A DNA stretch of 64,000 nucleotides from Balanoglossus misakiensis (GCA_040954595.2 CM082578.2:912831-976830), one strand, 5' to 3'. Shown: positions 2,612 to 57,426, counted from the stretch's first letter. Numbers and translations: made by a program. The notes: a model not told the origin generated them from the letters alone.

Positions 2612-2905
2612 AGCCTCACAAGCTGCCAAATTTTACACATCTTTTACCACAATAACATTTTTCAAATCATCCACCTATCCTTTAAAATCAGCACCATTGA
2701 GCCATATTACTTGAATTTGCATGGGGTTTGTCATCTCTCTGCGATGTGTACCCTCCATATGGAGGCTGATTAAAACAGGTGTGACTTCTTTAAATTGCAA
2801 CATACAGGCACATTCATTAGTCAATAAAATGTTCATGTATACCTATCAGTCAGTTTGTTTAGATGAACAAATCTAAGATGGAAAGTAATATCATGAAAAT
2901 ACTGT
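2612..2905. mobile_element. TTAA-targeting (Kolobok-like) MITE, degenerate copy
   Basis: Begins TTAA|AGCCTCACAAGCTGCCAAATTTT; homologous to 26571-26910, ~21659-22013 and ~50289-50605. Right boundary approximate. Confidence 0.55.
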
Positions 2906-3169
2906 AAGATTGGAAACTCTGAGTTTGAGTCTAAGGATAACAAGGGAACCTCTCTACTATTTGAAGCACCAAAGCTATGAAAAACTTCCTTCTTTCCCTC
3001 AAATATTTTTTATGAATATGTTCTACTCCGTGATTAAAATTTCCCTTTTACCAAATGTACATATGTAAGAGACGAGATTTTTTCAGCAAAATTTCAAATG
3101 GCCTAGGGTGACTTTTTACCTACTTACCCATATTGGGTAGCATGAAACACAGAATGGCATACCAGTGGG

Positions 3170-22013: not shown

Positions 22014-22307
22014 TTTAAAGCGCGGGCGAAGTATGAAAAGATGCAGTAAATATCGATACATTGTATTTTGGAGGTTTCTCATAACCATGATTGGTTGGCT
22101 AATTATGCGGCGTTTTCTAAATAAAAGGAACAATATTAATTTATTGTTGGGGCTCACCTCCGTTAACATCTTGCCGTCTCTGCTGAGTGTTGGCCTCTTC
22201 CAGCGGCACGTGTTTGTCCTTTACGGCATGCTGTAAAATATTTAGAATAGCGCTGCCATTTGATCAAAGGATAAGCTGGCTTCGCGTGTTAGGGATGTGT
22301 GTCTGAC

Positions 22308-23601
22308 TACGGCGCGCCAAGTGTTTCAAAATTATTTATCATTATTTTATAGAAAATTAATGTCTTTTTTTAAAAAAATACGTAAAAAACACACAAAAAA
22401 CTGATTGGTGGTTCAAAAAACAACGAGTGTAAAAAGTAATCCGTCGTGGAGTAAAAAAACAAAAAAAACAAAAAAAAAAACCTAACACACACAGAAGAAA
22501 ATGTCACCTGTTGTCAAAAAAACCCCACCAAGCTTACCGAAAAAAATACGTCCACAAGGCAGTTGCTCAAAAAATCACTAATTTGTCACAAAAAAACCAC
22601 GCGCACATTTTTCACGAAAAACGCACACTTCACCCCCACAAAAAATACACACAAAGTATTAAAAAGAACACTCTTTGAAAAAAAAGAGAGACTACAACTT
22701 AAAAAAATGCACACCCCCAGAACAAGCAACACAGGCAAACATAGAAAAAACACGAACATGTTAGCCATAAAAAAACGGAGATATTTGTCACCGAAAAAAA
22801 AAACCCGCACTCATGTCACCCCAAAACTAACGGGCCACTTTTAAAAAACGCAGATGCACTGAGGTTGCAAAAATAAGCACATTTTTAATCCCCCGAAAAA
22901 AAACCAGGCAATTTGAAAAAAACGCACAGCAATTTGCAAAAAAAAAAAATATGAACATTTGTCACCCCAAAAAACCAGGCAATTTGAAAAAAAAACGCAG
23001 AGCAATTTGCAAAAAAAAAATATATAGGAACATTTGTCACCCCCCCAAAAAAACAGGCAATTTGAACAAAAAAACGCAGAGCATTTTGCAAAAAAAAAAT
23101 ATAGGAACATTTGTCACCCAAAAAAAAAACGCAGAGCAATTTGCAAAAAAAAAAAATAATAGGAACATTTGTCACCCAAAAAACAGGCAATTTGAAAAAA
23201 ATAAAACACGATATAAAATTTGAAAAAAAAATATATAGGCACATTTGTCACCCAAAATATTCAGGCAGATCCAAGTTGTAAAAAATGGTATATTTGTCAT
23301 CCAAAAAATAAAACAAGCGTGTTTAAAAAAACGAACATTCAGTTGTAAAAATAAATAATAGTCTTTAACAACTTGAAAAAAACCCGGACGCATTTGAAAG
23401 AATAGCGTATGCGCATGCGCCGAAAAAAAAATTGAGTGAGAAATCCTGGGGAATAAATGCGCATGCGCAAAAAAAAAAAAAGTGAACAATCCTGGCTGAA
23501 AAAAAAAAGTGAGAGATTTCGGTAGAGGAGTCTGGGTAATATTTGAAAAAAAAAACGGAGTCTGAAAATAAGTTGAGAAAAGAAAGGGGAAACACACAAA
23601 C
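22308..23601. repeat. Left TIR (~1.3 kb) with ~65-bp A-tract subrepeats
   Basis: Unit AGGCAATTTG(A)nCGCAGAGCAATTTGC(A)nTAGGAACATTTGTCACCC(A)n; mirrored at 39433-40765. Confidence 0.9.
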
Positions 23602-23626
23602 CGATAAGGGTCGAAGATAAGCAAAC

Positions 23627-26355
23627 ATGGCGCCGTTATGGGATTCCTTCGTGAAGGAAGTGAAGATACTTGTTCGAGACCACAGAAACAGGTTACCGTC
23701 TGGTCTAAATGACCGGCGAGTGGTGTGTAACATGGTCGAGAGAACTGTCTCTATGATACGTTACACACTGAACATAAGAGAAGCGGTGCAGCACCATGTA
23801 ATGGCCGTTTCTGTGCAGGACATTCATTTGTTACTGGATTGCTTGAACTCTGTACATATTGCGTTGCAATCTGTTTTGGAAATATGGAGCTCTAACTCTG
23901 GAAACAGTCCTCGCTCTTGTGTTACGATTGGGAATGTTAATACGTCTCGTGATGTGAACTGTGGACTATCTGAGACTGAAACTATTCGAACTGGTGAACC
24001 TGGACGTCCACCATATGATATTGATGACAAGGTACAATTATTTATCGAATACGGGTTCAAAATGAAAGATATCTCAGAAATGCTCCAAATATCTCGTCAA
24101 ACATTATGGAGAAGATTGAAATCATTAGGGTATGATTTCACAGATAAGTACAATCCCATTAGTGATGCAGATCTTGACATGCACATACGCAGAATCAAGG
24201 AATCGACTTTTAAGCATTGCGGAGAAAGAATCGTGGAAGGTATTCTGAGATCTATGAAAGTTTCCGTTCAAAGACAGCGAATAAGAGAAAGTCTCCAGAG
24301 GATTGAACCTCTTGAACGAGCCCTGCGTTGGCCACTCTTGAGAATGAAAAGTAAAAGGCATGGTGTGTACAATGTGGCGGCAGCACAAAGTTTATGGCAT
24401 ATTGGTAAGAGTTTACATTACACAAAGTTATTATGATAGATAGTATGTACGTACATGCATGTAATGTATGTATGTATGTATGTATGTATGTATGTATGTA
24501 TGTATGTATGTATGTATGTATGTATGTATGCATGCATGCATGCATGCATGTAAATATGTATGTATCATGTATCTATTTATGTATTTATCTATCTATGTAG
24601 GTGTATGCGTGTCAGTGAAATCTTAAAACCACTGCATGTTTTCAAATGGAATTATATATACGCACGAACTGGTCAAAATCTCGTGGTATACCATGGCTGG
24701 GGGTGTTTTATTGCTATTATATTATGCCAGTATATTGAAACTTTGCATAAAACATTTTAAAAAGGCATTTTCTTTGACTATGATATATGACTGTGGTATA
24801 TGGCTAATATACCATGGTCACGTGTCGTGTCTCGACCAATCAAATAGCGTGATTTACACCATCAATATACTGGTATAATATAATACTCAATATTGAACAG
24901 TTGTCATAAAGATGCTTAAGTTAGACTCAGTCTGATACAGATACATCTTCGGTTTCGAGTAACTGAGAGTAATTGTGCATCAAGAGCTGATTTGTATAGT
25001 TGTACTTTAGGAAACCCTATTTAGAATGAAAAATATTTTGATCACATTTGGCCGTGTTCATATTTAATTTACATTCCAATCAATTATGCACTTCTGAGGT
25101 ACATATTTGATGTGATAAAAAAAATAATTTTCCACATCTAAATATAACTTTAAAGTGCTAAAATGTTGTACATGTCATACATTGAGCAATTGATCATGTG
25201 TACTCGTCTTTCAGCATATTCTTTTTATACTTAAGACTAATTTGGGTGAGGAAGCTGGAAATGCAGTTTTATGAAGTGGGCCTGCATCCCACGAAACCAA
25301 AACTGAATGCCAAACTAAATCTGAAGCTAGCTTAAGCATCATTGCCATGATGCTGTTTTTCCATGTTGATTTTATTTCTTAGTGAAACATTTACCATAAT
25401 TATGTATGTGGATTGCTGCTTTTCTGAATATTGAACTTAATTAATAAGTGTGTGATATATAGTCCTCCTTGCCAATAGAATTGATCTACGTGTACATTTA
25501 TCAAGAGTTTCATAAGGCTTAATACATATTTCATTTTTTGCAGATGGCCTGGAAAAATTACAAAGATGGGGACTATATGTTCATGGTGGAATAGATGGGT
25601 ATTCTAGAGTAGTTGTCTACCTCATTGCTGCCAACAACAAGATGGCATCAACTGTTTTAGATGGTTTCCTTGGTGCAGTGCAAGAATATGGCATTCCGTC
25701 CCGTGTCAGATCTGATTATGGGATGGAAAATACAACGGTTGCAGCTTTCATGCTGGCACACCGTGGAGACAACAGAGGTTCACACATTGTTGGATCATCA
25801 ATTTATAATCAAAGAATTGAACGATTACATCAAGATACATTTAAATGTTGTTTGGAATACTATCGTGATGTTTTTCTACAGATGGAATGCCAGGGTCTTT
25901 TAAATCCTGATAATCCTATAGAGATACTGTGTCTTCATTTTGTTTTTCTTCCTCGTATAAATTATTCACTGACAGTTTTTAGGAAAGGCTGGAATGAACA
26001 TAGATTGCAAACAGAACACAATTTGAGTCCGAATCAGCTGTGGCTGCAAAGTGTTACTGCATTCAAAAATTCTGATAAAACTGCTATCAGAGAACTGTTA
26101 GATCCAGAGAACATAGATTATGCCACTTATGGAGTGGAAACTGACATCACTGTCAACAGTAATGAAGAATACATCACTGTCAACAGTGATGAAGAATCAA
26201 ATAATGAAATGCTATCACCAACATTTGAATTGTCAAATTATGAGCAATGTTTTCAGACTCTACAGGAAAGGATAGATCCATTAGCAGCAAGTGATGAAAA
26301 GGGTATTGATATTTACACTAGAGCATGTTCCTTAATCAGACAAATGTCATTGTAA
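23627..26355 (+). CDS. IS3EU-type DDE transposase, 2 exons, 529 aa, apparently intact
   Basis: Exons 23627-24404 (donor G|GTAAGA) and 25544-26355 (acceptor TTGCAG|AT) join in frame (1590 nt). Motifs: GRPPY; HTH (ISEMLQISRQTLWRRL); SLWHIDG...HGGIDGYSR; PSRVRSDYGMEN; NQRIERL (D-D-E). Confidence 0.92.
24465..24550. repeat. (TATG)n/(CATG)n microsatellite in the transposase intron
   Basis: Read directly from the sequence. Confidence 0.95.
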
Positions 26356-26570
26356 TATCCATAAAGAAATACAATCACCTCCAATTTACACATACCGGTT
26401 ACCCATGTATGGTTACAAGGGTGTGTATAAATCTTTTGATAACCATGATGAAGTGGCACACTTCTTTTCACATGGCTACCTACTGAAAACAAGAGATATT
26501 AGTGGCTAAATTTCCACTTTCCATGCTGGTAACTGTGGCTTAATTTGCATCGGAGACTGTATACCTTTAA

Positions 26571-26910
26571 AGCCCCTATAGCTGCCAAATTTTGCATATT
26601 TTTTCCACAGTAAAATACTTCAAATATATTCCCTATCCTCTAAAATCCTCACCATTAAGCCATATTACTTGCATTTGCATCAGTTTGTCATCTCTTGGCG
26701 ACATATACAAATATAGCCTCGTACTGTTTGTATGGAAGCTGATTAAATCGGTGCGGCACCGTTTTCATACATGGCGTTTTCAGATCGCTACATACAGCCA
26801 TGATCAGGCATCGATAAGATGTTTGTTTATACCTAACAGCAAGCTTATTTTGATGGACCAATTTAAATTAATTCATGAAAATAATGCAAAAAGTGGCAGC
26901 TCCAGAGGCT
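26571..26910. mobile_element. Kolobok-like MITE nested in the IS3EU element
   Basis: TTAA|AGCCCCTATAGCTGCC ... GGCAGCTCCAGAGGCT|TTAA. Confidence 0.75.
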
Positions 26911-27918
26911 TTAACATGTAATGTACTTTGGCCATTTATCAAAGAGATAAGAAGAAATGAAAATGTTTGCGACATTGTTATTATTCATTGACATTTTAAT
27001 GTATCTTTTTAACTGGCAATGCTGAACTGAAGAATGTGCTCTGATTACAGCAACAAGACATCATTGCAAAAAAAAAACCACACACTTTATTAATGGCTCA
27101 ATACACCATAGAAAAAAACTTGTAAACATTTATTGATGTCAGACTTGGTATTCCACAAAATCATATAGGTAGCAGTTACTTTGTTTTCTTGTACATAAAA
27201 AAATAACAGGGACAGTGTTTAGATTGACACCTACATTTTGACCTGGTTTGAAGATTTTTGTCAATAAATGGAAATACTAAAGTCTACTGGTGTGTACAAG
27301 TAGTGCTTATATCAATCCATTTACACCAAGGTTTCAGAAAATGCCAATTTTTTCCCCTACCACAGGTCAGTACTTTATGCCATTTTAAAGCAACATTAGT
27401 AGTAACATTTTACTGTTTTATCCGTATTCTGCTTCTGTGTATTAACAGATTCTTGTTCTACTACATATGGCCGTGTTCTGGTTGTCAACATAGCCAGTGC
27501 ATGTGTAATGACCGATGTTATTTTTGATAAATGCTTTTGTGTCCCAAGTTGAATGCAATTTATAATAATAATGCTTCTGTATACACGTCAATGTTGCATT
27601 GGTAAGCTAAATAATTTAAAAAAAAAAAACGTCAAAAGTTACAGCTATTCAAGTAACCAAAGAAAAACCTTTTTCTGAGTCAGAACCATGTGGTGCTTTA
27701 ATCAACAAAATTACATCCACATTAAAATGATCACCTATTTCTAGCATGATTTAAGGAATAATAAAACAGCTTTGAAACAAAAAACGAGTGAAAAAGATCA
27801 CTAAAACGGCTGTGATAGGAGCTATAATAGTATAGAGCTATTTTTGCATATAAGAATAATACTCATTTTCATATAAGAATATTTAAATGCTTGTAAGTGA
27901 ATTACAATATGACCTTAA

Positions 27919-28001
27919 CCCTTTCACCCCCAGTTCCCTCTAGAGGTCCAACCTTACCATAGAGAACAATGGATTTGGACGGCACCAGAGAGGTGAAAGG
28001 G
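27919..28001. mobile_element. 83-bp piggyBac-like mini-MITE
   Basis: TTAA|CCCTTTCACC ... GGTGAAAGGG|ATAA. Confidence 0.55.
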
Positions 28002-28031
28002 ATAATTGTTCACCACCTCTCTGCTCTTGAT

Positions 28032-28904
28032 GCAATCTGGTTAAAATCAGATAAGTTTGGCATTGTCTTTGGCTGTTCTGTTCTCTGTCTTTGACTTGGC
28101 TGTTCTGTTCTCTGCCGTGGCTGTTCTTGGTGTACGTGCCACACTACATCATTCTGAACCTATGCCATAGAACATCTAGTTTTGGCAAATGGATCCATTC
28201 GACCAATCACAGAGCGGCTTTCCTACCGCTTCGGAACTGGCCACGCGCTGGAAACTAACTTCTATTGTTCAAGTTTGTTTGTTTTTCCACACCTCCAGTT
28301 TTCTAAACAACCGCTCTGATAGTCTCGGTTACCCAGACGCCTTTGCTCTTCCGATGCTCTCCAGAAAAGGGTCTGGGGAAATACTATTGAAAGCTTTGTA
28401 AAACAAAATGGCCGATGTCAGGATTTTGATCATCGCCTGATTGGCTGAGCTGTCAGTATGACCCGGGTCACTGCAATAGTTTCGACAATCGTCTACTAAA
28501 GATATTTCGTATAATTTCTCCAACAATGCTAACAGAGGACGCCTTTTGCCTTTCGCATCAACCAACAAGTACCGGTCTCTTGATATGAAGATATGACAAA
28601 TAATCACACATTGTCGAGAATCAGTGACCAAGGTCATACTGACAGCTCAGCCAATCAGGCGATGATCAAAATCCTGACATCGGCCATTTTGTTTTACAAA
28701 GCTTTCAATAGTATTTCCCCAGACCCTTTTCTGGAGAGCATCGGAAGAGCAAAGGCGTCTGGGTAACCGAGACTACCGCTCTGATTGAGATCTTCTATGG
28801 CATAGGTTTAGATGTAGTGTGGGCGTCTCTTTTTAACAGAACAGCCAAGAATCAGCAAAAGTAAAGATGGCGCCCAACACTACATCTAATTTTAATCAGA
28901 TTGC
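28032..28904. mobile_element. Foldback MITE (superfamily unassigned) hosting a younger insertion
   Basis: Left end GCAATCTGGTTAAAATCAGAT vs right end (reverse complement) GCAATCTGATTAAAATTAGAT; TCTTGAT directly repeated on both flanks. Confidence 0.65.
28320..28775. mobile_element. Palindromic MITE, AcademH-like (TAG...CTA, 9-bp TSD)
   Basis: ~145-bp perfect TIRs beginning TAGTCTCGGTTACCCAGACGCC; TSD CCGCTCTGA at 28311-28319 and 28776-28784. An 11-bp TSD with AG...CT ends is an equivalent parse. Confidence 0.75.
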
Positions 28905-28979
28905 TCTTGATAATTGTACCTGTCTGGTGAGACATAATAGAAAGTCAAACTAGTCTCTGTCCCATTGTTGACCTCAGTT

Positions 28980-31481
28980 TTACATGATATGTCTGTGTCC
29001 CTTGATCATCAGTTTTGCCAGTCGGTCAGTCTGCGTCTCTTTGTTCAGAGAACCCAACATCACAGTCTGTGCATGTGTATGTGCAGTTTCCACATGGCCA
29101 GTTGTCTGTGTATTGACATTCACGCATTTCATAGATATCATCTCTGTAGTACTATCTGTCAGTTCCACATGATCAGTCTGTATCCCAATGGTTGTGTGTG
29201 TTTTGGGATCATCAACCCACTGCCCACTCAGCTGTTCTTTGACACTGTGTATGTCTTCTAGCTTTACAAGTAACAGTTCTGTCGTGTTGGATGGATTACA
29301 AACCCGATCATCGATGCTATCCTTCATGTAGTCGATAATGCGACCACAAAGTCCTGCATTTAACTTCACACGCAATCCAGGCGGTACAGCCTCTATCAGG
29401 GCCAGGATCTCACCATCAGTACCACTTTCAAACTGGAACCCCTGCATTAGCAACTTGTTGCACACTATTTGTTTCAGATCTTCAGATGTGTATGGCTGGA
29501 AGATCCATGGTTCCCTGAACCTTCTTAAGAGACCCTCATTAGCTGACAGCAACTTCTCCATTTCCATCTTATATCCTGCAAGAACAAATACTGGGGTATC
29601 TCTCATACAGTCACCAGTGAGATAGTGCATAAGGGTGTTTATTATGTCAACTCCAAAGTCCTTCGTAGATTTGCCTTTATATAGTGAGTATGCCTCATCA
29701 ATAAACAGCAATCCACCAGCTGCCTCTTCGATCTTTTTCTTCATTTTCTTCTCTGATTCTCCCAGATACTGAGCAACAACATTATCTCTCTGTACTTCAA
29801 CAACTTTCTCTTCCTTTAATATACCAACATCATATAAGCATCCTGAAATGGCAAAGCACAAAGTAGAACCATGACTAAAAATGCTTTTGAATTTACTGCA
29901 CTGATTGCTGTATCTAGAATATAGAAATTACCAGAATAGGTTTTGACTTACATGATATGGAAATACCCCCCTCACCACTTCACTGTGTACATTTCATCTA
30001 GTTATATGACAATTGTGCGTGTGTATTCAAAGACAAACATGGAAATTATTGGAGAAGCAATGGTAATTTTAGCGACAATTTTATGACCCCCCAAAAAAAG
30101 GAAATTGCTGAGTCATCCCTTCTCCCCACTTTAGATCTTCATGGTAGAAGTTTTTAGATGAGCTGACTCCAAGACTCAAGCCGGTCTGACATAAATTTTA
30201 TTTTTGCAGATATTGATTTTGATTCTCATTCTGAATTATTTCTGACAATTTCAAGAAAATGACAATATTTTATGGTGGTTTCTTGCATTTTTACACACAA
30301 TCCTATGGTATAAGATAACCATGTACAGCCTATGCAAAGTGGAAAGAAACTAGGAATACTCCCTAAACTCTCTATTTATACATTGAATAAAACTTGATTT
30401 CCTATTATGGTATCATCCTTTATATTGCACCTGGAACAAAATATTAAGTAATAAAAATGAAGGTAAAACTAATTTTCTCACAGTTCTGTGAAAGTGGTAC
30501 TCTGTGAAATGAAAACTGTACCATTAAATTACGAAGGGTGTTGACTTTTGCATTGTGTTTTTTGAAACATTTGAGAATTATAGGTTAAAGCCCCAGTATT
30601 TCTCGTGTGTATCCATTTTTCATCATCGAAAAATGCCCGTTTTTCCTGTACATTCATCATGGAATACTACATAATGAAGATATAAGAAAGTTTTGGGCAA
30701 CTGTAGCTATATGCAAGCTGTAAATATTGCCCGTAACACTTGCCCGTAACACGGGTTTGTTTACAACGGAAATGTTGTACATCTCGATCAGCAAACGTGC
30801 CACTTTGATATTTGATGTCAGACCATTTTCAGATTTGATCTGGTTCCATCGACTGATTTCTCCCATATAGTTATCTTCCCAGAATTTCGCCGATTTAGTG
30901 CGCATTTCTTCGCTGAGGTGCTAGATTTGGGGCGACCAAACCTCTTCCGCATAGATTCACATTTGAGTGCGCATGCGCAGTAGTCACGTGTGTCAACAGA
31001 GCCTGACTTTCTGTCCGGACAGAAAGTCATTCTTCACTCGTTATATTGTAAATTGTATGTGTTTATGAACAGAGCTGGGCATGATAACTGTTAGATTCAG
31101 AATCAATTATCATGTACTTTTAGAAATTGAAGATGCCGTTTCAAACAAAATTTATGCGAAAACGAGAAATACTGAAGCTTTAATATTGAAAACAAATTTA
31201 CAGCTTTAAAGTTTAATGAGTTCTATACATTGTAACAGATTGAATGGACACAAAAAGAAACATACCTGCCAGCAACCTAGCAAACATAGTTTTGCCTGTG
31301 CCTGGTGGCCCATAAAATAATAAATTTAGGGGCTCCTCTTCTTGTTTCTTAATTGTACTTCGGGCTTTGTTGTTTATTGCGCGGATGGCTAGCTTTTCTA
31401 CTTTCTTCTTAATATCCTCCATCCCAACAACAGATTTTAGTCTTCTCCCAACTCGTCTTCTGACCAATTCTCTATTCAACT
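28980..31481 (-). CDS. CbbX/CfxQ/SpoVK-family AAA+ ATPase domain (3' exons of cargo gene)
   Basis: Exons 31481-31266 and 29842-28980 join in phase 1. Motifs: VVGMEDIK; NLLFYGPPGTGKT (Walker A); VEVQRDNVVAQYLGES; GGLLFIDEAYSL (Walker B); KDFG; VFVLAGY; NEGLLRRF (Arg finger); FQPYT. Confidence 0.88.
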
Positions 31482-34400
31482 CTTTTAAAAGGAAAAAAAA
31501 ACACGTCCTGTCATATCAACTCTGTCCCTAAGCAGTACAGAAGGGAAATCTTCTAAATTAACAACATCAAATATAGAAGTCACATATTATCATTTTTCCA
31601 TGAGAAACAAGCCATTTATCCCTCCATTTTCAACAGCAAGGACAAAAATGGTTTGTTATCATATGATAAATATTTACCTAATCCACAACTTATTTGTCTC
31701 AAGTCAACAGAATCCTGAAGTCTGCAGGGAAAATAAAAGAAAAAAGTGGTAAAATAGTACATGTACACACTCAGTGACATTATGAAGCTTTGATTACGAC
31801 AATAACCTTTACCTCTTGCCAGAATGAAGAAAAACATTGGACATATCATGAAAAGTCTTCACACATACAGATCTGTGGTAACATATTAGAATGCTAGACA
31901 ATGTCGAATGAGAATATTTGATACAGTAAACACATATTGCCTGATTACATGGAATGTGCAAAAAAATGAAAGATGTTATGTTCTGTCCTTTTACATACAA
32001 CTAAAACTTTTGTTTGGATGTTTTGTCACCAGGAAAATACCTTTCTTTAGCAGATATCCTCACAGCATCACTCAGCTTTGAAGGGTAAGGACTGAACATT
32101 TCGGCCTTTGAGTACACAGCTATTAGTGAGTAATTAAGGAAGACAAACAAAACTCTATTTTCCATTTTAGAATGACTACATGTTCATCACTTTTACAGCC
32201 TTTAAAGTTTTCTTTGAAAGTACTGATATTCTATTTATTTTCAAAGTGTACGGTAGTTTAATGTTTACACAAGGACTGTGTAATAGTGATCACCTACAAA
32301 CAGACATTAACTGCAGAGCTTGTATCAATTTCTAAAATGGACTGCACTGAGACACTTGTGAAATACATCAAAAAATTATTGTGTACTGATCACTTTATCC
32401 ACTATAAAATCAACAGTTTTTTGTAACATGTTACATGAAGTAACAAGAAACGTGCGTCTGTTCTGGTTTCAAGAGAAAAAGGATATTGACACTGTCTTGT
32501 TGATTGCCTCCTTGTAGATACTTCAGAATGGCAGAAGTCATGATAAATTCAGTTACATGGTCATCATCATACATGACCCTGAACAGACAAAAACAAATGA
32601 GATGTGTTAACAATAGCAGGGAATTTGATAAGTTTTAACACATTAATATAACATGCATAGAGACTCAAACTTTATCTTTAATTGTAATTTGTCAAAGAAA
32701 GAAATTGTAAAATTATATCAATTATCACTTTTCTGCAGTCAATTACATACATGTTCTCATGAGCACCATCAATTAAGAGGCTTCACAGACTAAATTTCAC
32801 TAAAACTGATCTGTTATTGATTATTCATTCTTTTCAGTATTTAACAGCTTTACACACGAAATGATGACAAAGAAGAACATAGCAAACAGACTATATTTAC
32901 CATGTATCTGCCTCCTTCTTTACTAACAACATTATATGGCCCCTTATTTCAGAATGCACAACTATGGCAGTGACTTCCATATCAGGGGGTGACCAGAATG
33001 CAGGGAAATCTTGTGGAGACAACAGTGCTTCAGCAGTCATCGACCTCGGAATTTTTATACTCCTATTGTCCTGTAATATCACAAAAGCATCAAACTTTTC
33101 AAAGACTAATAGTATACAATTTAAATTTATCCTAAATCATTTGCTCTACCTAGGATAAAAGAAGCTACTTATTCTTTTGGTTGACTGTATTTAGAAAAAT
33201 GTAGAAGACAATACTGCACTGGCCCCAGCTACTGTATGTGCATTGATAAGCATCCTTGTGTCTCATCTCAGTTGTCAAATCATTCATGACCTAAAGCTTA
33301 TGCCCTATAGCAACTACAGCAAAAGTCACATGTTGTGGTGCAATGAATTATACTTCACTTTCTCTTGATAATTAACATTTTTATGATCAGTCTACAGAAA
33401 GTATGAAACCTACCTTATTGCCATAACCATCATTTCTGTGAATCCCCAAACATATTAAATTGGGTTCTGTTACCCAGAAGTCAACATGCTTTACGCTGTC
33501 ATCTATAATGAAGAAAACAAACAAAATGATGTTCCTTTTCCTCCCTTCTCCCTAAAGTAGAGTAAATGACAATCACTTTTTCATTTAAGGGTTTCTACTT
33601 CTGTAGTATCTCTGGGGGTAAATTGATACCGTGACAATGTCAATATTTATACAGTGACCCCTCAAAGAGAAATTATGAAAATTAACTATATTTTCAGTTC
33701 TATATTTGTAACAGTGAAACATATAGCAAAGTAACTAAGTGTACATGTATAATCAAATAAATAAAAAACATACGTTCAGAAGGTTCAGGTGCTCCGTCTA
33801 TGCTGTCTTTGATTTGGACTTTCACATTAGAAGGAATGTCTCGCCAACAATAAATCATTCTCTCTGTGAGAAAATGATTTAGCATACTGTCAATTGATGA
33901 TCCTGGGTTTAGTTGAAGAACGTACCAGGGGTGTATCAAGGTAATGTATAGGAAAACTGAATATTAAATTGACAATCATCAGCAAAATCAATGATGTCAG
34001 TATCATTTGTTATATTTTTCCCTATAAAATGATCACACCCTGAAAAGGTCTGCCCAATTTAGTTTCAAATTAATGCCCACCCCTACTTCTTGAAAACACA
34101 TTATCTCACCATCTGTTAGTTACTACCACAGGGCAGCAACCTTTTTACTTTATATATGCGTGATAAAATCACCATACAACCATTCATAGTTTCTGAGTTT
34201 GTGTACAACAGTATTTATGGATATATATGCACTTGAACACTGGTCTCGTCAACATGAAGAATCTAGTTTGTTACAAAAATATATACTTAAGTCAGGAAAT
34301 TAGCTGTAACTTTTCGATGTTTTCAGTACAGGTACTTTTGGTTTGTTTATCTCCTGCAGTTTTTTGTTCAAATCCTTATAGTATGAAGAAATGCCCCACA

Positions 34401-37400
34401 TTCAAAAATTTAATTAAAGTCTGGACAAGAATTTATTTGTCAACAATAACAATGGTCAATGTTACGTTACACACATACAGCCTATGTTGATTAGTGCAGT
34501 ACTAGAAATGGCATGCTGTTGTTAGAGGACCACAAAACTGCAATTGATTCACTGATCAAAAATACTGAAAATAGAGCAAACAGTTACAGCTTAAATCCCT
34601 TATAACAGCAGGGTCAAACAAAGGATATGACGATAACTGTCGTCTTCAAATTCCTCATCCTCGTAAATCCAGATCCGTCTCCGTGTACCTGCCAAAGTTG
34701 TCTGGATTACCTGTGCTAAATGCTATAAAACATGAAACGAATGAAAAAATCTATCAATTGGAAGAAAAAAAATCGCGTCAAGGACACGGTGGTCCCATTG
34801 AGGGATTACACAAGAAAATGTCTACACCAGAGTACATGGCCATATACAGACAGACAGACAGACACACACACACATAGAGAAAGAGAGAGATCAAAGAGCA
34901 AACACTGACTGACCCATAAGCTGCCAATGGCATATGTACTGTACATACACTAAATAGAACAGCTGGCCTCTTTAAAACTTAGCCAGTTATGTTATCATGC
35001 AGGAATTTGCTGTGTGTATAAATATCAGGAGGGGGTTCCTGCCAAATTACAAAGAACTCAATAAAGTAAATACACACACTTTGCAAAGCAATCTGACCAG
35101 TAGTTCTTGAGTCACTGAGTTTTGACCAAATTCAAATTTTTCATTTGAACAAACTCCCATTTCAGCCCAGCCTGCATCTGCACACCAAATATCAAGGTGA
35201 TACACGCAGCGGTTTTCAAGTTTTTTATGTGGACAGACATACAGACATCCATCCATACATACATACATACATACAGACGCAACCAATCCCATAAGGTCCC
35301 ATGGTATATATGTACATATAAATCAAATTGGACCTAAAATCTAAATCTACAGGCATGGTTTGTGGGGCCCAAGTGGTTCCCACGGAATTCCAAAGCTGTA
35401 TCTGAGCCAGATAATGAGATATCAGAAAGATGGTCAAGGTCACCTAAGGTCACCAAAAACTTTTTAAATAAATTTTTGCTGGTTCATGTCCGACAAACTT
35501 GACACAGTTACATTATCAGAACAAATGTAAGACTGACCTAAAATCAATTAACACAGACAAGATTGAAAATACTGTACCTCATTTTCTGTACACAACACTT
35601 TCAAGGTTTCGTCCAACACTTCTGCAGGGTCATACCCACCGCCAGCCATATCCCGTGGCATACACTTGAGGAAATGGCTTACTGCTGTTTCGTATTCTGC
35701 CAAACAATCCTCTTCACCAATCAAAGATATCATCTAGATTTAAATGGGAATGATAGATGAAAAAGTGTTTTATGAAAATTCCTGATATTATATTTTTGGC
35801 TTAATAATGTTGACACTACCGTATACTGATATCAAGTATATAACCCATCCTATGGCATAGAAGAAGGTAAATTGTTATATGCTGTGAGAGACAACTTTGC
35901 TCACTTCAGTAAAATTAGAAGTGAGAAGCTATGACTGCACACACTAACTATTTTTTAAAGAATACAGTCATAAGCTTTAATCTTTTGTAATGGAGAGTAT
36001 TTGTTAAGTTAATTTTGTAATTGTAATTATATGAAAAAAAGTATAATACATCAAAATACCTGTCAAAGGTGACATATTACCTTGAATGAATACAAACCAA
36101 TTCACTGCATGTACTGACAGAAACATAACGTCAAGAATAATAACAAATAATGAATTATCATGAAAATTGCGAAAACAATTAAAAAATCATATGTCACTCA
36201 GTAGGTCATCGTAATGCCCATTTAGTCTGCAATACCTAAAGACAATTTGCATAACTTGAAATGAAAAGTTTGACATACCTCAATGACAGCTTCAATACAT
36301 GGACCACCAGAAACCACCTCAGATAAACATTCCATAATTGGTTTTATGCATGCAAGAAGGTGTATCACCGCATTGACTGCACAGTAATTGCCAGGGTTTG
36401 GTAGACCTGTTGTGAGAAACACACTACATATAGTGGAAGCTAGTAATTTGTTTCAATTATCAACAAGGCAATATCCCCGTCACCATCCTTTTAAAGTTTC
36501 TTGTTTTCTTGGAAAGAAGGGCACAGACATTTCTAACAAGCCAAGAGTGCATGATTGAAATTACATGTAATGGCAGAATGGTTAAAGGTCAGAAGTTGAG
36601 GGGTCATAATCTGGTAAGTATTAAGGATTTGATCACACTGAGATCAACTGATTTATGCTGGAACATAAGAAATTAGGGGATCACAGAGTGCTATCAAACC
36701 TTAGGTTTTATTTTATTGAAGATCAGCACAGCTAAACTACTATTTGGATTCTAGTACATAATGGACATTTGAACAATATATGCATGTGCACCAACTGATC
36801 TTATCTTGCAAATTCAAGTAAACTTTACTGAGGGCAAGAACGTCATTTTTTTATATTCAAAAGTCATGACTCAATCTACATCAGACTACATCTCCCTTGA
36901 TCATGCATGTTTACTTTTTCTGACAAGGATGAATGTGTCTTTGCTGAATAAGTACTTAGGTTCACATTACCGTAATCTACAAGCTGCTCTGCACCATCAG
37001 TACAAATCATGTCTCTCAGTGTGCACTCCTACAAATAAGAAAATCATGGCATTAATTGTCTTTATGTGACTTTTGTCAATGTCACTTGTATGTTAACACA
37101 ATTCGACCAAAGGGGTTCACCTGTTGACATGTTAGCACCCCCTAGGAATTTGTCAGGGGGGGGGGGGGCAGGACAATATTCAAAGAAATAGTTTCCATAT
37201 TTTCATTTTTATCTTTCATAAATTTTGAATTGAAGCAGCTGTATTAAAAAATTGTGATGCGTACAGTTGATCAAACATAAACATACTCACTCACTCACTC
37301 ACTCACAAGCACGTCATCAGCCTGAGCACAGCTCTCTTATTGAAACTAAACAACATGAGAAGACTTATTGAGCAGGATACTTACATTCTTTGGATTTCCT

Positions 37401-38494
37401 TTATGTCTCTTGGCAGTACTTTCCATTTGGTGGTGTTGTCTACCAATTGGACTCTGTCCAGTGGTTGATTGAGGTCCATTGCATAGGGTGTCATGAGTTG
37501 TACTTGTTAATCCCATTGGTTCACTTGATGGAGATGGCCTGTCTTCACTCGCCTGATTGGATACACTGTCTGGGAAACTTAACGGCACTAGCTGCATTGT
37601 TGTATCATCATGTATTGTACTTGTTAATCTCATTGATTCACTTGTTGGAGATGGCACAGTGTCTTCAATGGCCCGATTAGATGTGAAACTTAAAGGCTGT
37701 ATAGTTGTATCATTTTCTGTTTGAAGAGGTTGGACAACGGTAGTGCATGCATATCTTTCATCCTCATGGCTTTGCAAAGTAGTAGTATTTCCTTCAATCT
37801 CAGTGGTGACTTCATCAAGTACCATGGATGGGGACTGGAGGGACGTGTCTGCAGTCACTGTACTGTTATATGTATCTACAACATTTGAACACCTCTGATA
37901 ATGCTGAATGCTGGCAGTTTCCTGGGTGTGGTCATGTTCTGAATCAAGCATGACATAGATGGTTTTATTCAAACTCCTTGTATCCCATACTGCTTTTGCC
38001 GTATATTTGAATGAGCGGGAAACGATTCGTAACTGGACTGAACCCTTGCGTGGAACATCCACAAACTTGAATTTTCCCATATAGTTTGGATATGCAAGGC
38101 TTATCATGTTCTGTATTTCTCGCTCCACCTGTATATCATTCCATTTACTTTCTAAGCAAATGTCACCTTTGAAAAGCCAGTCTCCATCACAGTTATGTAC
38201 AGTTCCTGTTGTGTCCATCATGACTGCTTCGTCATATTTTAGCACACACAGTTTCATATGGTACATTCTTGATTTGGGTAAATATACAGCTGTGGATCGA
38301 GGAAATACAGCAGTTTTTCTTGATGTGTCCCTAGGATTTTGTGCGCGGCTGGTGTTATGTGGTGTGTTCTGTAATTGTTGTACTTGAGCTGGCTGCCTTC
38401 TTCCCCTAAATAAATTGTTTACGGCTGTTCTTACTTCAAGTGTGTCCATTGAGTCCAATGTTCTTTGTATTTCTGACCTTTGTGTATTATCCAT
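28980..38494 (-). CDS. Putative single multi-exon cargo gene: N-terminal domain + S/T-rich linker + USP + AAA+ ATPase
   Basis: First coding exon 38494-37385 (AAT|GTAAGT), then 37028-36971, the USP exons, linker exons 32119-32041 and 31721-31678, and the AAA exons. Most junctions are phase-compatible GT-AG; junctions near 34.6 kb and 32.45 kb require weak donors. Confidence 0.55.
32452..36406 (-). CDS. USP/peptidase C19-like deubiquitinase domain (middle exons of cargo gene)
   Basis: Exons in order: 36406-36279 (Cys box GLPNPGNYCAVNAVIHLL); 35733-35578 (GYDPAEVL, like QQDAxEFL); 33956-33774 (PWYVLQL...SIDSMLNHFLTE); 33502-33414 (EPNLICLGIHR); 33070-32901 (His box AIVVHSEIRGHIMLLVK...W); 32578-32452 (VMYDDDHV...SVNILFL). 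The exon(s) near 34.3-34.7 kb are unresolved. Confidence 0.72.
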
Positions 38495-38720
38495 TCTGAT
38501 GACTTTTGGAAAGAAGATATGAAAAATATATGAAACATTATTTCACAAAGACCATAATGAGGAATAACTGTATGTTAAAATGTAACACATGAAAATATGC
38601 CATGCATCTCTATGTGAAATACTACATACAATTCAAGAATGTAAGTTAATTGTCTTGGTAAACTATCATCAACCGCTGGCGGTTGGCAGCAAGCCGCAAA
38701 GCAACACATTGCCCTGTTAC

Positions 38721-38951
38721 CACAGGGGACTCTCCCTCCGCAATTTTGTTTGTTTGTTTGTTGTTGTTGTTGATGATGATGATGATGATGATGATTTTTG
38801 GCATAATAAACAAATACATATTTCTTTATTAATAAATATGGTTTGTTGACATGTAAGTGTTAGGGTATTATCATCATCAACAACAACAACAACAACAAAC
38901 AAACAAACAAACAAACAAACAAACAGAATCGCGGAGGGAGAGTCCCCTGTG
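38721..38951. mobile_element. P-superfamily-like MITE
   Basis: CACAGGGGACTCTCCCTCCGC ... GCGGAGGGAGAGTCCCCTGTG; 7-bp TSD CTGTTAC; mirrored (GTTT)n/(GTT)n/(GAT)n tracts inside. Confidence 0.75.
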
Positions 38952-39432
38952 CTGTTACATCACTCCAGCGGCGGGAATTTAGCTACCAGGGCTGTGTGTT
39001 GTTAACGGCTACGCCTCCAATCACAGCCCTGCTAAGCTACATAGCCAAACCTGGCGAAACTCAACGGATTTGTTGCGGTATGGTTTCCTTACCAAAAACG
39101 GCCGATTTCGAACTCAAAACGTGCGTCGATCTTCGTCACACAGCCCTGTCACGCAGAGCTAACTATATGCGAAAACGATGCGAAAAGACACAACTGAACT
39201 TTTATACTTCGGAAATAGTAGAATAAGAAAGTTCACTCGAAAACATGATTTTTTAAACATGATGCAATCCATGCAAAATAACGACTTGTCATGCACTGCA
39301 GCTAGCCACGGTTAAAATAAACTTAAATATAACATACAGATGATACACACCTTTTGTGGATGTCGATTGATAACGATGATGCCCAAAAGATGCTTCGGAG
39401 TTCAGTCCCACGTATCTCGACGCCTAGCAGTT

Positions 39433-40765
39433 GTTTGTGCGTTTCCCCTTTCTTTTCTCTTCTTCAATTCAACTTATTTTCAGACTCCGTTTTTTTTTTT
39501 CAAATATTACCCAGACTCCTCTACCGAAATCTCTCACTTTTTTTTTTCAGCCAGGATTGTTCACTTTTTTTTTTTTTTGCGCATGCGCATTTATTCCCCA
39601 GGATTTCTCACTCATTTTTTTTTCGGCGCATGCGCATACGCTATTCTTTCAAATGCGTCCGGGTTTTTTTTCAAGTTGTTAAAGACTATTATTTATTTTT
39701 ACAACTGAATGCTCGTTTTTTTAAACACGCTTGTTTTATTTTTTGGATGACAAATATACCATTTTTTACAACTTGGATCTGCCTGAATATTTTGGGAGAC
39801 AAATGTGCCTATATTTTTTTTTTTCAAATTTTATATCGTGTTTTTTTTTCTCAAATTGCCTGTTTTTCTGGGTGACAAATGTTCCTATATTTTTTTTTTT
39901 TTTTGCAAATTGCTCTGCGTTTTTTTTTTCAAATTGCCTGTTTTTTGGGGGGTGACAAATGTTCCTATATTTTTTTTTTGCAAATTGCTCTGCGTTTTTT
40001 TGTTTTTTTTTTCAAATTGCCTGTTTTTTTGGGTGACAAATGTTCGTATTATTTTTTTTTGCAAATTGCTCTGCGTTTTTTTTTTCAAATTGCCTGTTTT
40101 TTTGGGTGACAAATGTTCCTATTTTTTTTTTTTTTGCAAATTGCTCTGCGTTTTTTTTTTAAATTGCCTGGTTCTATTATAAATTTGCTTATTTTTGCAA
40201 CCTCAATGCATCTGCGTTTTTTTTAAGTGGCCCGTTAGTTTTGGGGTGACATGAGTGCGGGTTTTATCGGTGACAAATATCTCCGTTTTTTTATGGCTAA
40301 CATGTTCGTGTTTTTTCTATGTTTGCCTGTGTTGTTTGTTCTGGGGGTGTGCATTTTTTTCAAGTTGTAGTCTCTCTCTCTCTCTCTTTTTTTTTTACAA
40401 AGAGTGTTCTTTTTAATACTTTGTGTGTATTTTTTGTGGGGGTGAAGTGTGCGTTTTTCGTGAAAAATGTGCGCCTCTTTTTTTGTCACAAATGAGTGAT
40501 TTTTTGAGCAACTGCCTTGTGGACGTATTTTTTTCGGTAAGCTTGGTGGGGTTTTTTTGACAACAGGTGACATTTTCTTCTGTGTGTGTTAGGTTTTTTT
40601 TTTTGTTTTTTTGTTTTTTTACTCCACGACGGATTACTTTTTACACTCGTTGTTTTTTGAACCACCAATCAGTTTTTTGTGTGTTTTTTACGTATTTTTT
40701 TAAAAAAAGACATTAATTTTCTATAAAATAATGATAAATAATTTTGAAACACTTGGCGCGCCGTA
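39433..40765. repeat. Right TIR of the IS3EU element
   Basis: Reverse complement of 22308-23601, with a different number of subrepeats. Confidence 0.9.
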
Positions 40766-40804
40766 GTCTGACGACTATGCCTCGAAGCAAAAGACACAGC
40801 CGAC

Positions 40805-43800
40805 TACGGCGCGCCAAGTGTTTCAAAATTATTTATCATTATTTTATAGAAAATTGATGTTTTTTAACAAAAAAAATACGTAAAAACACAAAAAACTGAT
40901 TGGTGGTTTAAAAAACAACGAGTGTAAAAAGTAATCCATCGTGGAGTAAAAAAAACAACAACAACAACAAAAAACCTAACACATACAGAAGAAAATCTCA
41001 CCTGTTGTTAAAAAAAAACCACCAAGCTTACCAAAAAAAACGTCCACAAGGCAGTTGCAAAAAAAAAATCACTTATTTGTCACAAAAAAACCACGCGCAC
41101 ATTTTCCACGAAAAACGCACACTTCACCCCCACAAAAAACACACACAAAGTAGTAAAAAGAACACTCTTTGAAAAAAAAAAAGAGAGACTACAACTTGAA
41201 AAAAATGCACACCCCCAGAACAAACAACACAGGCAAACATGAAAAAACACGAACATGTTAGCCATAAAAAACGGAGATATTTGTCACCGAAAAAAACCCC
41301 CGCACTCATGTCACCCCAAAACTAACGGGCCACTTTAAAAAAACGCAGATGCACTGAGGTTGCAAAAATAAGCACATTTTTAATCCCCCGAAAAAAAACA
41401 GGCAATTTGAAAAAAAAAACCACAGCAATTTGCAAAAAAAAAAAAAAAAATAGGAACATTTGTCACCCAAAAAACAGGCAATTTGCAAAAAAAACGCAGA
41501 GCAATTTGCAAAAAAAAAATATATAGGAACATTTGTCACCCAAAAAAACAGGCAATTTGAAAAAAAAAACGCAGAGCAATTTGCAAAAAAAATATATATA
41601 GGAACATTTGTCACCCAAAAAAAACCAGGCAATTTGAAAAAAAAAACGCAGAGCAATTTGCAAAAAAAAAAATATATAGCAACATTTGTCACCCAAAAAA
41701 AACCAGGCAATTTGAAAAAAAAAAACGCAGAGCAATTTGCAAAAAAAAAATATAGGAACATTTGTCACCCAAAAAAAACAGGCAATTTGAAAAAAAAAAC
41801 ACAGAGCAATTTGCAAAAAAAAAATAATAGGAACATTTGTCACCCAAAAAACAGGCAATTTGAAAAAAAAAAACACGATATAAAATTTGAAAAAAAATAT
41901 ATAGGCACATTTGTCACCCAAAATATTCAGGCAGATCCAAGTTGTAAAAAATGGTATATTTGTCATCCAAAAAATAAAAAAAGCGTGTTTAAAAAAAACG
42001 AGCATTCAGTTGTAAAAATAAATAATAGTCTTTAACAACTTGAAAAAAAACCCGGACGCAATTGAAAGAATATCGTATGCGCATGCGCCGAAAAAAAAAA
42101 TGAGTGAGAAATGCGCTCCAAAAAAAAAAAGTGAGAGATTTTGCTAGAGGAGTCTGGGTAATCTTAAAAAAAAAAACAGAGTGTGAAAATAAGTTGACTC
42201 GAAGAAGAGAAAAGAAAGGGGAAACACACAAACCGTCACACAGGACAAACAACAGTCTCCTCATCGCCGAGGCGTACGTGTGATGATATGACAAGTGTTT
42301 ACGTCTGTGAGGTGGTGTGTATGTGTCGGATAGAACGCGAGTCGACTAGAATCCGAGTCGACTGACGGTTACTGTGGTGGACGCGAATATATTGTCGCCA
42401 TTGTGGGATTCCTTCGTGAAGGAAGTGAAGCCACTTGTTCGGGACCACATATGACCGGAGCGTTGCGTTTAACATGGTCGAACGAACTGTCATTATGAAC
42501 AACTCCTGCTGTAACCTGTGATGCTGAAACGTACAATAACTTTCCATATTCTTTTGTACAGTACACAGAGTTTCAACGCGGATGACGCGGAAACGATCAA
42601 CTATAAATTATGGACTGAGCGACTCCTTTGGGGTATTTGACCTTTTACCAGCCAAATGTAAACAAACGATTTGCGGTGAATTCATACACATGACAACGAT
42701 TTCCCGAAGGTCATTCATACCTCACTTTGAAAAATACAACAAATAACAAACAGTTTCTAAATAAAATATTTTTTTCCAATATTTATAAGTTGTCAATACT
42801 GAGCTGATTTTTTGTATAGTTCGCTAGTACTGCACAGAAGACAGTATTAGTTGTGGGCACCATGCCAACTCTTGGGCAACTTTCAGTTCTGCCGTTTGGG
42901 GTTTAGATTTGTCTTACATCACAGATGATTATGCTACAAATTTCACGATTTCTGTAGACCAAATCTAGAATAGCAAACCGCGGACGTAGTGCCAGTGGTG
43001 TCATGTTTGACTGTGTGGTATCATGACGGTATCATGTTTATGTGGTCCCGAACAAGTGGCTTCTCTTCCTTCACGAAGGAATCCCACAATGGCGACCACA
43101 TATTCGCGTCCACCACAGTAACCTTCAGTCGACTCGGATTCTAGTCGACTCGCGTTCTATCCGACACATACACACACCATCTCACAGACGTAAACACTTA
43201 TCATATCATCACGCGTACGCCTCGGCGATGAGGAGACTGTTGTTTGTCCTGTGTGACGGTTTGTGTGTTTCCCCTTTCTTTTCTCTTCTTCGAGTCAACT
43301 TATTTTCACACTCTGTTTTTTTTTTAAGATTACCCAGACTCCTCTAGCAAAATCTCTCTCTTTTTTTTTTGGAGCGCATTTCTCACTCATTTTTTTTTCG
43401 GCGCATGCGCATACGCTATTCTTTCAAATGCATCCGTTTTTTTTTTCAAGTTGTTAAAGACTATTATTTATTTTTACAACTGAATGCTCGTTTTTTTAAA
43501 CACGCTTGTTTTATTTTTTGGATGACAAATATACCATTTTTTACAACTTGGATCTGCCTGAATATTTTGGGTGACAAATGTGCCTATATATTTTTTTTTC
43601 AAATTTTATATCGTGTTTTTTTTTTTTCAAATTGCCTGTTTTTTGGGTGACAAATGTTCCTATTATTTTTTTTTTTTGCAAATTGCTCTGCGGTTTTTTT
43701 TTTCAAATTGCCTGTTTTTTGGGGTGACAAATGTTCCTATATTTTTTTTTTGCAAATTGCTCTGCGTTTTTTTTTTCAAATTGCCTGGTTTTTTTTGGGT

Positions 43801-44598
43801 GACAAATGTTCCTATATTTTTTTTTTTGCAAATTGCTCTGCGTTTTATTTTTTCAAATTGCATGTTTTTTTTGGGGTGACAAATGTTCCTATTTTTTTTT
43901 TGCAAATTGCTCTGCGTTTTTTTTTCAAATTGCCTGGTTTTTTTGGGGTGACAAATGTTCCTATTTTTTTTTTGCAAATTGCTGTGCGTTTTTTTCAAAT
44001 TGCCTGGTTTTTTTTTCGGGGGATTAAAAATGTGCTTATTTTTGCAACCTCAGTGCATCTGCGTTTTTTAAAGCGGTCCGTTAGTTTTGGGGTGACATGA
44101 GTGCGTGTTTTTTTCGGTGACAAATATCTCAGTTTTTTATGGCTAACATGTTCGTGTTTTTTCTATGTTTGCCTGTGTTGTTTGTTCTGGGGGTGTGCAT
44201 TTTTTTCAAGTTGTAGTCTCTCTTTTTTTTCAAAGAGTGTTCTTTTTAATACTTTGTGTGTATTTTTTGTGGGGATGAAGTGTGCGTTTTTCGTGAAAAA
44301 TGTGCGCGTGGTTTTTTTGTGACAAATAAGTGATTTTTTTTTCAACTGCCTTGTGGGCGTATTTTTTGGTGAGCTTGGTGGTTTTTTTTACAATAGGTGA
44401 GATTTTCTTCTGTGTGTGTTAGTGTTTTTTTGTTTTTTTTTTGTTGTTTTTTTGACTCCACGGTGGATTACTTTTTACACTCGTTGTTTTTTAAACCACC
44501 AATCAGTTTTTTGTGTTTTTTACGTATTTTTTTTGTTAAAAGACATCAATTTTCTATAAAATAATGATAAATAATTTTGAAACACTTGGCGCGCCGTA
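40805..44598. mobile_element. Non-autonomous palindromic IS3EU derivative (3.8 kb)
   Basis: Same TACGGCGCGCC...GGCGCGCCGTA termini; arms ~40805-42452 and ~43041-44598; flanks GCCGAC / CCCGAC (6-bp TSD, one mismatch). Confidence 0.88.
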
Positions 44599-57321: not shown

Positions 57322-57426
57322 TCTTGGGACAAAAAGAAAAAAAAGAAAATTAACGGTTAGTGGGTCCTCGCCTGTGACGAGTCATAGCCCTACCCGATGG
57401 CATTTTCCCCTTTTCCCTGTGTTCCC

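Follow-up and report, generated by a model that had tools for sequence, protein, structure and literature searches.

We report an 18,458-bp transposon at positions 22308-40765 of a 64,000-nt stretch of DNA from Balanoglossus misakiensis (hereafter the window, from whose first letter all coordinates are counted). By its sequence, this is a structurally intact DNA transposon of the IS3EU/GingerRoot group. Convergent with its transposase gene lies a second gene, the cargo gene, which is predicted to encode a USP-type deubiquitinase fused to an AAA+ ATPase. We consider it very probable that the cargo protein has this USP-AAA+ architecture and that it is cargo at the level of the element family. 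A fuller reading, in which an intact IS3EU transposon carries a likely active USP fused to an AAA+ motor that likely serves the element's own transposase, seems to us evenly poised between right and wrong.

The transposon and its predicted cargo gene

The transposon begins with TACGGCGCGCC and ends with the reverse complement of this sequence, giving termini of the TA..TA form (TACGG...CCGTA). GTCTGAC is present on both outer sides as an exact 7-bp target site duplication (22301-22307 and 40766-40772). The terminal inverted repeats (TIRs) are approximately 1.3 kb in length (left, plus strand, 22308-23601; right, minus strand, 39433-40765). Their alignment spans 1,358 columns, of which 25 are mismatches and 89 contain gaps. 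They are identical over their outermost 160 bases and hold tandem units of approximately 75 bp, subterminal in the left TIR. An earlier note made from this DNA had claimed TIRs and a 7-bp duplication; both were confirmed, and the TIRs proved far longer than a terminal motif. The motif TGCGCATGCGC occurs at seven sites in the window (23410, 23458, 30968, 39578, 39625, 42078 and 43400), six of them in TIR arms against a chance expectation of 0.00, including two close to the inner end of the left TIR (23410, 23458) and two in the right TIR (39578, 39625). We take TGCGCATGCGC to be an NRF1-type promoter motif.

The transposase gene lies on the plus strand and has two exons. The first (23627-24404) encodes a helical N-terminus and a helix-turn-helix (HTH) and extends as far as the codon for the first catalytic Asp; the second (25544-26355) encodes the rva_4 DDE core with D317 and E352 and ends at the stop codon. 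The product of 529 aa has one terminal stop and the residues D260/D317/E352, and matches Pfam rva_4 at E=8.7e-67 (225 bits), in agreement with the earlier description of an intact DDE transposase. IS3EU/GingerRoot elements are defined by TA..TA termini, TIRs and TAYGG..CCRTA ends (PMC10045372, PMC12730594), and their target duplication is usually 6 bp, with 6-8 bp accepted and 7 bp found in 5 of 77 GingerRoot elements (PMC6839031). The element described here has the corresponding TIR termini and target duplication and an integrase-like DDE core without an HHCC domain, in which the first catalytic Asp, D260, lies within 100-300 residues of the start and HTH matches fall solely upstream. By eye, the transposase motifs WHID, GGIDGYSR, RSD and NQRIERL agree with those of IS3EU-1_CVi and IS3EU-1_SK in the supplementary alignment of PMC10045372. 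An acorn worm was among the first IS3EU hosts named (PMC11934779), and the closest relatives among 189 transposase matches came from the acorn worms Ptychodera flava and Saccoglossus, a pattern that by itself points to a probable enteropneust host.

The model of the cargo gene, on the minus strand, has 13 exons that join into a single open frame of 1,083 aa, with ordinary GT/AG sites and consistent phases at 11 exon borders. Exon 1 (37385-38494) holds the start codon and encodes a globular domain of approximately 110 aa without a named family, followed by a Ser/Thr-rich linker. A short exon 2 (36971-37028), present as a model only, leads to the exons of the USP half: exon 3 (36279-36406) with the Cys box (Asn393, Cys398), exon 4 (35578-35733) with thumb helices and what we take to be a degenerate QD box, exon 5 (34629-34710), exon 6 (33774-33932, its 5' edge a preferred model among other in-frame acceptors), exon 7 (33414-33502) with a fingers/palm strand, exon 8 (32901-33070) with the His box (His639), exon 9 (32487-32578) with the catalytic Asp655, and exon 10 (32041-32125) with the final USP strand and a linker. 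The linker continues in exon 11 (31678-31721), where 8 of 16 residues are identical to the P. flava protein P0270 (XP_070533303, described below). Exon 12 (31266-31481) encodes the N-terminal helices of the AAA+ domain and Walker A (K788), and exon 13 (28980-29842) encodes Walker B, a GY sensor-1, the Arg finger motif, the lid (sensor-2 Gly960), a TQT-like tail and the stop.

Exons 5 and 9 are without a strong GT donor and read into stops, and directly after each lies a U12 donor, ATATCCTTT. A frameshifted, dead cargo gene was considered on account of these stops and rejected in the light of the U12 donors and the P. flava homologue. The two occurrences of ATATCCTTT in the cargo sense strand compare with 0.116 expected, and at least two were seen in 0.4% of 1,000 simulated sequences. 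One of the 15 pairs of AC acceptors tried with the ATATCCTTT donors gave the open 1,083-aa frame; a wider scan of joins yielded one further in-frame AC acceptor at intron 5 and GT-AG alternatives at both introns. The published consensus of U12 AT-AC introns is ATATCCTT for the donor (PMC3291851) and TTCCTTRAY for the branch site (PMC8848931). Intron 9 (32126-32486), which joins the USP to the ATPase half, is predicted to be such an intron, with the ATATCCTTT donor, the branch site TTCCTTAAT at -16 to -8 and a CAC acceptor. Its AT-AC join was the best of 49 open joins when compared with P0270 (score 211, against 185 for the best GT-AG join) and the sole listed join of the homologue's length (58/58 residues). 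Intron 5 (33933-34628) is probably also of the U12 AT-AC type, as judged from its perfect ATATCCTTT donor. Its branch site is imperfect (candidates with 7/9 at -22 to -14 and 8/9 at -11 to -3), two AC acceptors and several GT-AG joins keep the frame open, no homologue extends across it, and a USP sub-profile was unable to choose among its 32 open joins. The ordered exons of the earlier note are kept, now as one predicted spliced frame, and the AT-AC introns are an addition to that reading, which had missed them.

Residues 390-688 of the cargo protein correspond to a divergent USP, and the exons for the Cys box, the His box and the Asp follow one another in the order usual for USPs. Pfam UCH matched the Cys-box exon over profile positions 1-30 (E=0.033) and P0270 over positions 148-239 (E=0.013). 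We also used a profile built from 74 USPs of giant viruses; the 60 PDB rows shown for its seed alignment were all USPs. This profile scored 18.0 bits against the joined cargo protein, compared with 2.8 bits for the best of 500 shuffles, and aligned Cys398, His639 and Asp655 to catalytic positions; Asn393 (oxyanion) and Asp656 are also present, and the His and Asp are kept in P0270. An Atlas model of P0270 residues 1-165, the C-terminal USP half, resembled UCH domains in all 6 rows, at TM 0.70-0.75, with predicted models on both sides of the comparison. When the His-box half was searched against PDB, 5 of 5 sequence matches at E<=10 were to USP14, all at E about 1, and phmmer of the Cys-box exon against PDB returned no USP. 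AlphaFold models built from single sequences, one for the N-terminal domain and one for P0270 1-165, had a mean predicted local distance difference test score of 40, and Foldseek matched them to nothing at E<=0.001. The profile alignment bears out the Cys box, His box and Asp that had been read from the exons, and profile and fold searches together support a C19/USP identity. We predict that the USP half is probably a catalytically active deubiquitinase.

Residues from approximately 735 to 975 form an AAA+ domain nearest to EccA, SpoVK and CbbX. It has a Walker A motif GPPGTGKT (782-789), Walker B FIDEAY (D845, E846), sensor-1 LAGY and an Arg finger motif N-x-G-L-x-x-R-F (NEGLLRRF, R904); in the sequence alignment G161, Y162, N173 and R179 are invariant. 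Walker A/B, the GY sensor-1 and an Asn ahead of the first Arg finger are features of this clade (PMC11513918). The ATPase fragment P0122 (XP_070556525) from P. flava matched the family profiles EccA at 8.5e-45, SpoVK at 6.1e-43 and CbbX at 4e-35, and the best PDB matches reached 1e-32 and 6e-30 (PDB 9lur, 3syk). P0122 nevertheless falls under the NCBIfam equivalog cut-offs for SpoVK, CbbX and EccA (146.8/422.95, 121.5/459.25 and 153.3/466.65 bits). The sensor-2 position reads N-A-G in the cargo and in P0122, and N-G-S in a second P. flava protein, P0255 (XP_070559078); with its sensor-2 Arg replaced, the cargo ATPase is placed as a relative of the SpoVK/CbbX/EccA clade and not as a member. N-A-G also recurs within the clade, in 119 of the 630 domains fetched (a set with redundancy), and an Arg is present four residues beyond it in the cargo. 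Of the full AAA+ module previously claimed, Walker A/B and the Arg finger stand, with Gly in place of the sensor-2 Arg. That note had also drawn an analogy to IstB and TnsC. Pfam IstB matches the cargo ATPase at E=0.015-0.14, compared with 1e-43 to 1e-45 for the SpoVK/EccA profiles, which groups the ATPase with dedicated protein remodellers and not with DNA-loading transposition ATPases; the analogy is weak, and IstB/TnsC identity was rejected.

The N-terminal domain of the cargo protein received no Pfam or NCBIfam name, and its Atlas look-alikes (0.90-0.93) were unnamed animal proteins. The tail has four [T/I/A]QT boxes. These TQT-like boxes lie at 28983-29260 on the minus strand of the window; in P0255 they are much expanded, to fifteen, at residues 427-535. 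They presumably resemble binding sites of the dynein light chain LC8.

Recurrence and origin of the cargo

A search with the His-box exon identified one protein of two candidates, P0270 of P. flava, in which the USP half runs into the ATPase. It is 73% identical to the cargo over 302 columns with one gap, and no gap falls at the intron-9 junction. The best of the transposase matches was XP_070533302 (P0271), also from P. flava, with 81% identity over 366 columns. XP_070533302 immediately precedes XP_070533303 in accession order, and each is on a contig of 40,314,384 bp. The gap-free junction and the apparently adjoining transposase support both the USP-ATPase fusion and its co-travel with the transposase in a second genome. 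The same pair of genes apparently side by side in an acorn-worm genome suggests that the cargo is likely a working helper, not a stray passenger. P0122, whose contig measures 48.2 Mb, shows no difference from P0270 across the shared ATPase stretch, and P0255, on a 47.3-Mb contig, is a 37% paralogue; the N-terminus of P0255 looks unrelated. On these protein matches the cargo is multicopy in P. flava, and transposase and cargo are again paired in another genome or subfamily, with amino-acid sequences that diverge by about 20-27%.

Identity between the cargo and its P. flava homologues is uneven by exon, ranging from 49 to 94% (chi-square p=0.0003), with 82-94% in exons 12-13, the core ATPase. 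Catalytic motifs are kept, and the 475 codons compared remained stop-free in 3% of 300 neutral simulations per branch at comparable divergence. Three outcomes raised in the earlier note as fatal to a cargo role were separate transcription of USP and AAA exons, copies of the element that lack the cargo, and a neutrally decaying one-off capture. Our results spoke for none of them: an independent gene model from P. flava has the two halves in one protein, the cargo appears beside the closest P. flava transposase and in further copies, and divergence is uneven and preserves motifs.

Searches beyond hemichordates gave more distant relatives. Among 880 ATPase domains, the best from outside the hemichordates scored 145 bits, compared with 233-414 bits for the P. 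flava copies. Trees were built from 87- and 40-sequence subsets of these domains. The three hemichordate-type ATPases formed a clade (100%), and their grouping with three viral domains appeared in 31 of 60 bootstraps (ultrafast bootstrap 49), so that a viral sister group of the cargo ATPase is not supported by the tree. Metagenome contigs gave two distant ATPase loci among 588 stretches, and viral contigs gave relatives of the transposase in 0 of 5 and of P0122, used as a single query, in 0 of 15. A USP scored over the cut-off in 4 of 7 records searched, all four of them giant-virus bins. These bins, G001-G004 (L038, L059, L014 and L057), each have a SpoVK/CbbX-like ATPase and a separate, stand-alone USP gene. 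The PDB matches of the His-box half give a hint, at the level of sequence, of USP14 as a cargo donor.

Proposed mechanism and competing explanations

Of the earlier interpretation, the functional part, in which the enzyme counters silencing or degradation or takes the transpososome apart, stays a proposal. We propose that the two genes are co-expressed from a promoter sequence that the two TIRs would share; from there both would be transcribed inward, with the transposase ATG 26 bp and the cargo ATG about 940 bp from the TIR inner end. Removal of intron 9, and probably of intron 5, from the helper mRNA would depend on the slow minor spliceosome, which would limit the helper's dose; minor introns are described as inefficiently spliced (bioRxiv 2020.10.12.336362). 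The AAA+ domains would form a ring like those of CbbX and SpoVK, and would recruit one dedicated client via the N-terminal part of the protein. Such a role would match the characterised members of the SpoVK/CbbX/EccA clade, which are dedicated chaperones with substrate-recruiting N-termini (PMC11513918). The attached USP would strip ubiquitin from this client, making the protein a one-chain counterpart of host ATPase and deubiquitinase pairs. A transposase client would be spared proteasomal removal and be released or recycled from the strand-transfer complex, after which the 6-7-bp gaps could be repaired. Among the possible main clients we place the element's own transposase first, at about even odds. 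We put forward more tentatively, as a minority expectation, the complete scheme: a single-chain segregase and deubiquitinase, the first peptidase-fused ATPase of the SpoVK/CbbX/EccA lineage, that rescues and disassembles the transpososome, with its dose gated by two minor introns and transposition thereby tied to cells efficient in U12 splicing.

Several observations weigh against the reading of an active USP-AAA+ helper of the transposase. The P. flava models are partial: P0270 begins after intron 5 and ends inside the ATPase, and P0122 is ATPase only, so that the Cys box is seen in this window only. The broken models may reflect annotation failing at non-GT introns, with which they are consistent. 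Adjacency in P. flava is judged from accession numbers and a shared contig size, that is from proteins and not DNA. Searches with exon 13, which were dominated by multi-domain bacterial ATPases, returned no full-length fusion among 120 listed of 360 matches of 502-2000 aa or in the best 150 of 16,027 representatives. Cargo splicing and the co-expression of the two genes are predictions from a model; frame-keeping GT-AG joins occur at introns 5 and 9, one of them with a fair donor at intron 5. The USP pieces, scanned singly, score 14.2 bits (Cys-box exon) and 15.6 bits (P0270), under the Pfam UCH cut-off of 23.9; several positions conserved in USPs have changed, and the USP profile does not align to the domain's middle part. 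In the ATPase the sensor-2 Arg of the clade is lacking, with N-A-G and not N-A-R at 958-960. Finally, many IS3EU elements carry other second genes, such as an alpha-kinase or TET (PMC12730594), which indicates that a USP-AAA+ helper is not needed by the whole superfamily.

This variety of second genes among IS3EU lineages would also fit host-directed, arms-race cargo. The same fusion could be aimed at the host, with the USP deubiquitinating a silencing or repair factor, for example a histone, and the ATPase evicting it, in counter-defence or to steer repair. All the architectural evidence fits this explanation equally. Other IS3EU cargo, TET/JBP, has been read as anti-silencing (PMC12730594), and the Ulp1, OTU and C19 domains of DNA transposons have been proposed to act on DNA-repair factors (PMC2836005). 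However, the characterised ATPases of the clade act on one dedicated partner, often co-encoded (PMC11513918), and the strong conservation of the core ATPase in exons 12-13 is by itself not suggestive of an arms race. We regard a host target as a real but lesser possibility.

It is unlikely that one of the two domains is inert, either a weak or dead USP serving as a ubiquitin-binding scaffold for a working ATPase or, in reverse, an ATPase that has become a passive oligomeriser for the USP after loss of sensor-2. The sub-threshold scores and unaligned middle of the USP and the sensor-2 sequences of the cargo, P0122 and P0255 would fit such a protein, but Asn393, Cys398, His639 and Asp655/Asp656 are present and align to catalytic positions, with the His and Asp kept in P. 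flava, N-A-G is shared with many domains of the clade, and the ATPase retains both Walker motifs and its finger Arg. Least probable is that the cargo consists of host gene pieces captured at the DNA level and copied without a role, or of two genes annotated as one: this would accord with the host gene fragments with introns carried by GingerRoot elements (22 of 77; PMC6839031), with minor introns as typical of old host genes, mouse Usp14 having one (PMC8848931), with USP14 as the sole PDB match of the His-box half and with the partial P. flava models, yet no close host donor was found among the 880 domains, neither frame is interrupted, the sequences have diverged unevenly with their motifs preserved, the pair persists in P. 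flava, and the GingerRoot passengers are fragments 79-98% identical to their donors, usually with loss of the transposase (PMC6839031).

Surrounding features and known systems

An adjacent non-autonomous element of 3.8 kb with the same ends as the main transposon (40805-44598), without an intact gene, begins 40 bp downstream of it. This element has a 6-bp duplication with one mismatch, and each arm holds a TIR and a remnant of the transposase start, as a fold-back of the left end. Its presence indicates that such ends are mobilised. The target sites of both elements end in GAC. Within the main transposon, a MITE-like inverted repeat (28320-28775) is nested between the 3' ends of the transposase and cargo genes, and further repeats are found at 26565-26901, 35057-35292 and 38721-38951. 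Host repeats inside the transposon match flanking DNA at 69-86% identity, and the nested repeats suggest that the lineage has gathered insertions outside its exons.

Elsewhere in the window, a multi-exon transposase-like gene on the minus strand (12950-18692) has matches to RAG1 importin-binding (E=1.1e-9), a RING finger and DUF1280 (E=3.1e-11), and we take it to be Chapaev- or RAG-related. Pieces of a long terminal repeat retrotransposon pol gene lie in several frames at 56224-60703 on the minus strand, comprising reverse transcriptase, RNase H and an integrase that carries a PHD finger at its C-terminus; the opposite strand has another reverse transcriptase fragment at 62566-63177. Large inverted repeats of about 80% identity flank the region (2209-5528 with 47655-50960, and 7414-8747 with 45885-47191) and are probably other repeat families.

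How eukaryotic cut-and-paste transpososomes are protected and disassembled is largely an open question, and what the second genes of IS3EU elements do is described as unexplored (PMC11934779). Here one intact element would supply a transposase together with a two-enzyme helper whose catalytic residues can be named. With Cys398 and Glu846 as targets, the proposal that the ubiquitin system acts in transposition (PMC2836005) becomes testable by point mutants. The fusion would also add a peptidase partner to an ATPase clade in which a published survey states that it found no peptidase fusion (PMC11513918). Minor introns, usually rare and ancient, would be spread by a mobile gene that contains them, and their presence would explain the mis-annotation of such genes in pieces. 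IS3EU elements with a second gene (PMC10853768, PMC12730594) and USP/C19 domains in DNA transposons (PMC2836005, PMC11417382) have already been published. In the literature searched, which left Repbase Reports and most subscription journals outside, we found no USP-AAA+ transposon cargo, and no gene belonging to a transposon itself that contains minor introns. PMC11934779 mentions Repbase Reports on IS3EU families of acorn worms, in which the second gene may be described; bioRxiv 2021.09.26.461848 has no occurrence of 'ubiquitin', 'peptidase' or 'AAA'.

The element resembles other IS3EU/GingerRoot transposons in its TA..TA ends, its rva_4 DDE core and its oppositely oriented second gene. It differs in the size of its TIRs (1.3 kb, compared with 100-150 bp in Selaginella GingerRoot), in total size (18.5 kb, compared with 3.9-12.9 kb in GingerRoot), in a 7-bp duplication that is a minority class in the group, and in a second gene that is a predicted USP-AAA+ fusion with AT-AC introns, where the published IS3EU ones are alpha-kinase, TET/JBP or unnamed. 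Host cells pair ATPases with deubiquitinases in the 26S proteasome with USP14 and in p97/Cdc48 with its deubiquitinases. The cargo would share with these pairs the combination of AAA+ and deubiquitinase, in one polypeptide, from another AAA+ clade and on a mobile element. With USP14/Ubp6 it shares the USP fold and catalytic triad; USP14 is also the best, though weak, PDB match for the His-box half (E about 1), which is no more than a hint of descent. IstB, TnsC and MuB are transposition ATPases, and ClpX disassembles Mu complexes. As in the IstB, TnsC and MuB systems, an ATPase is encoded here beside a DDE transposase, and ClpX would be a functional analogue for disassembly; all of these are, however, DNA-loading or host enzymes without a deubiquitinase. 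SpoVK, CbbX (the red-type Rubisco activase) and EccA provide the best profile and PDB matches and share the GY sensor-1 and the Asn before the finger Arg, whereas the cargo ATPase is far below their family cut-offs, has its sensor-2 Arg replaced, is fused to a peptidase and lies in an animal transposon. In Ginger1 (OTU, Ulp1), Mutator (Ulp1), Helitron2 (OTU, UCH) and the Trichomonas transposase-C19 protein XP_001314237 (PMC2836005, PMC11417382), a DNA transposon likewise carries a ubiquitin or SUMO cysteine hydrolase, for which a role in transposition or repair has been proposed, as here. In those elements the hydrolase is fused to the transposase or to Rep/helicase, whereas here it would have a gene apart from the transposase and be joined to an AAA+ ATPase.

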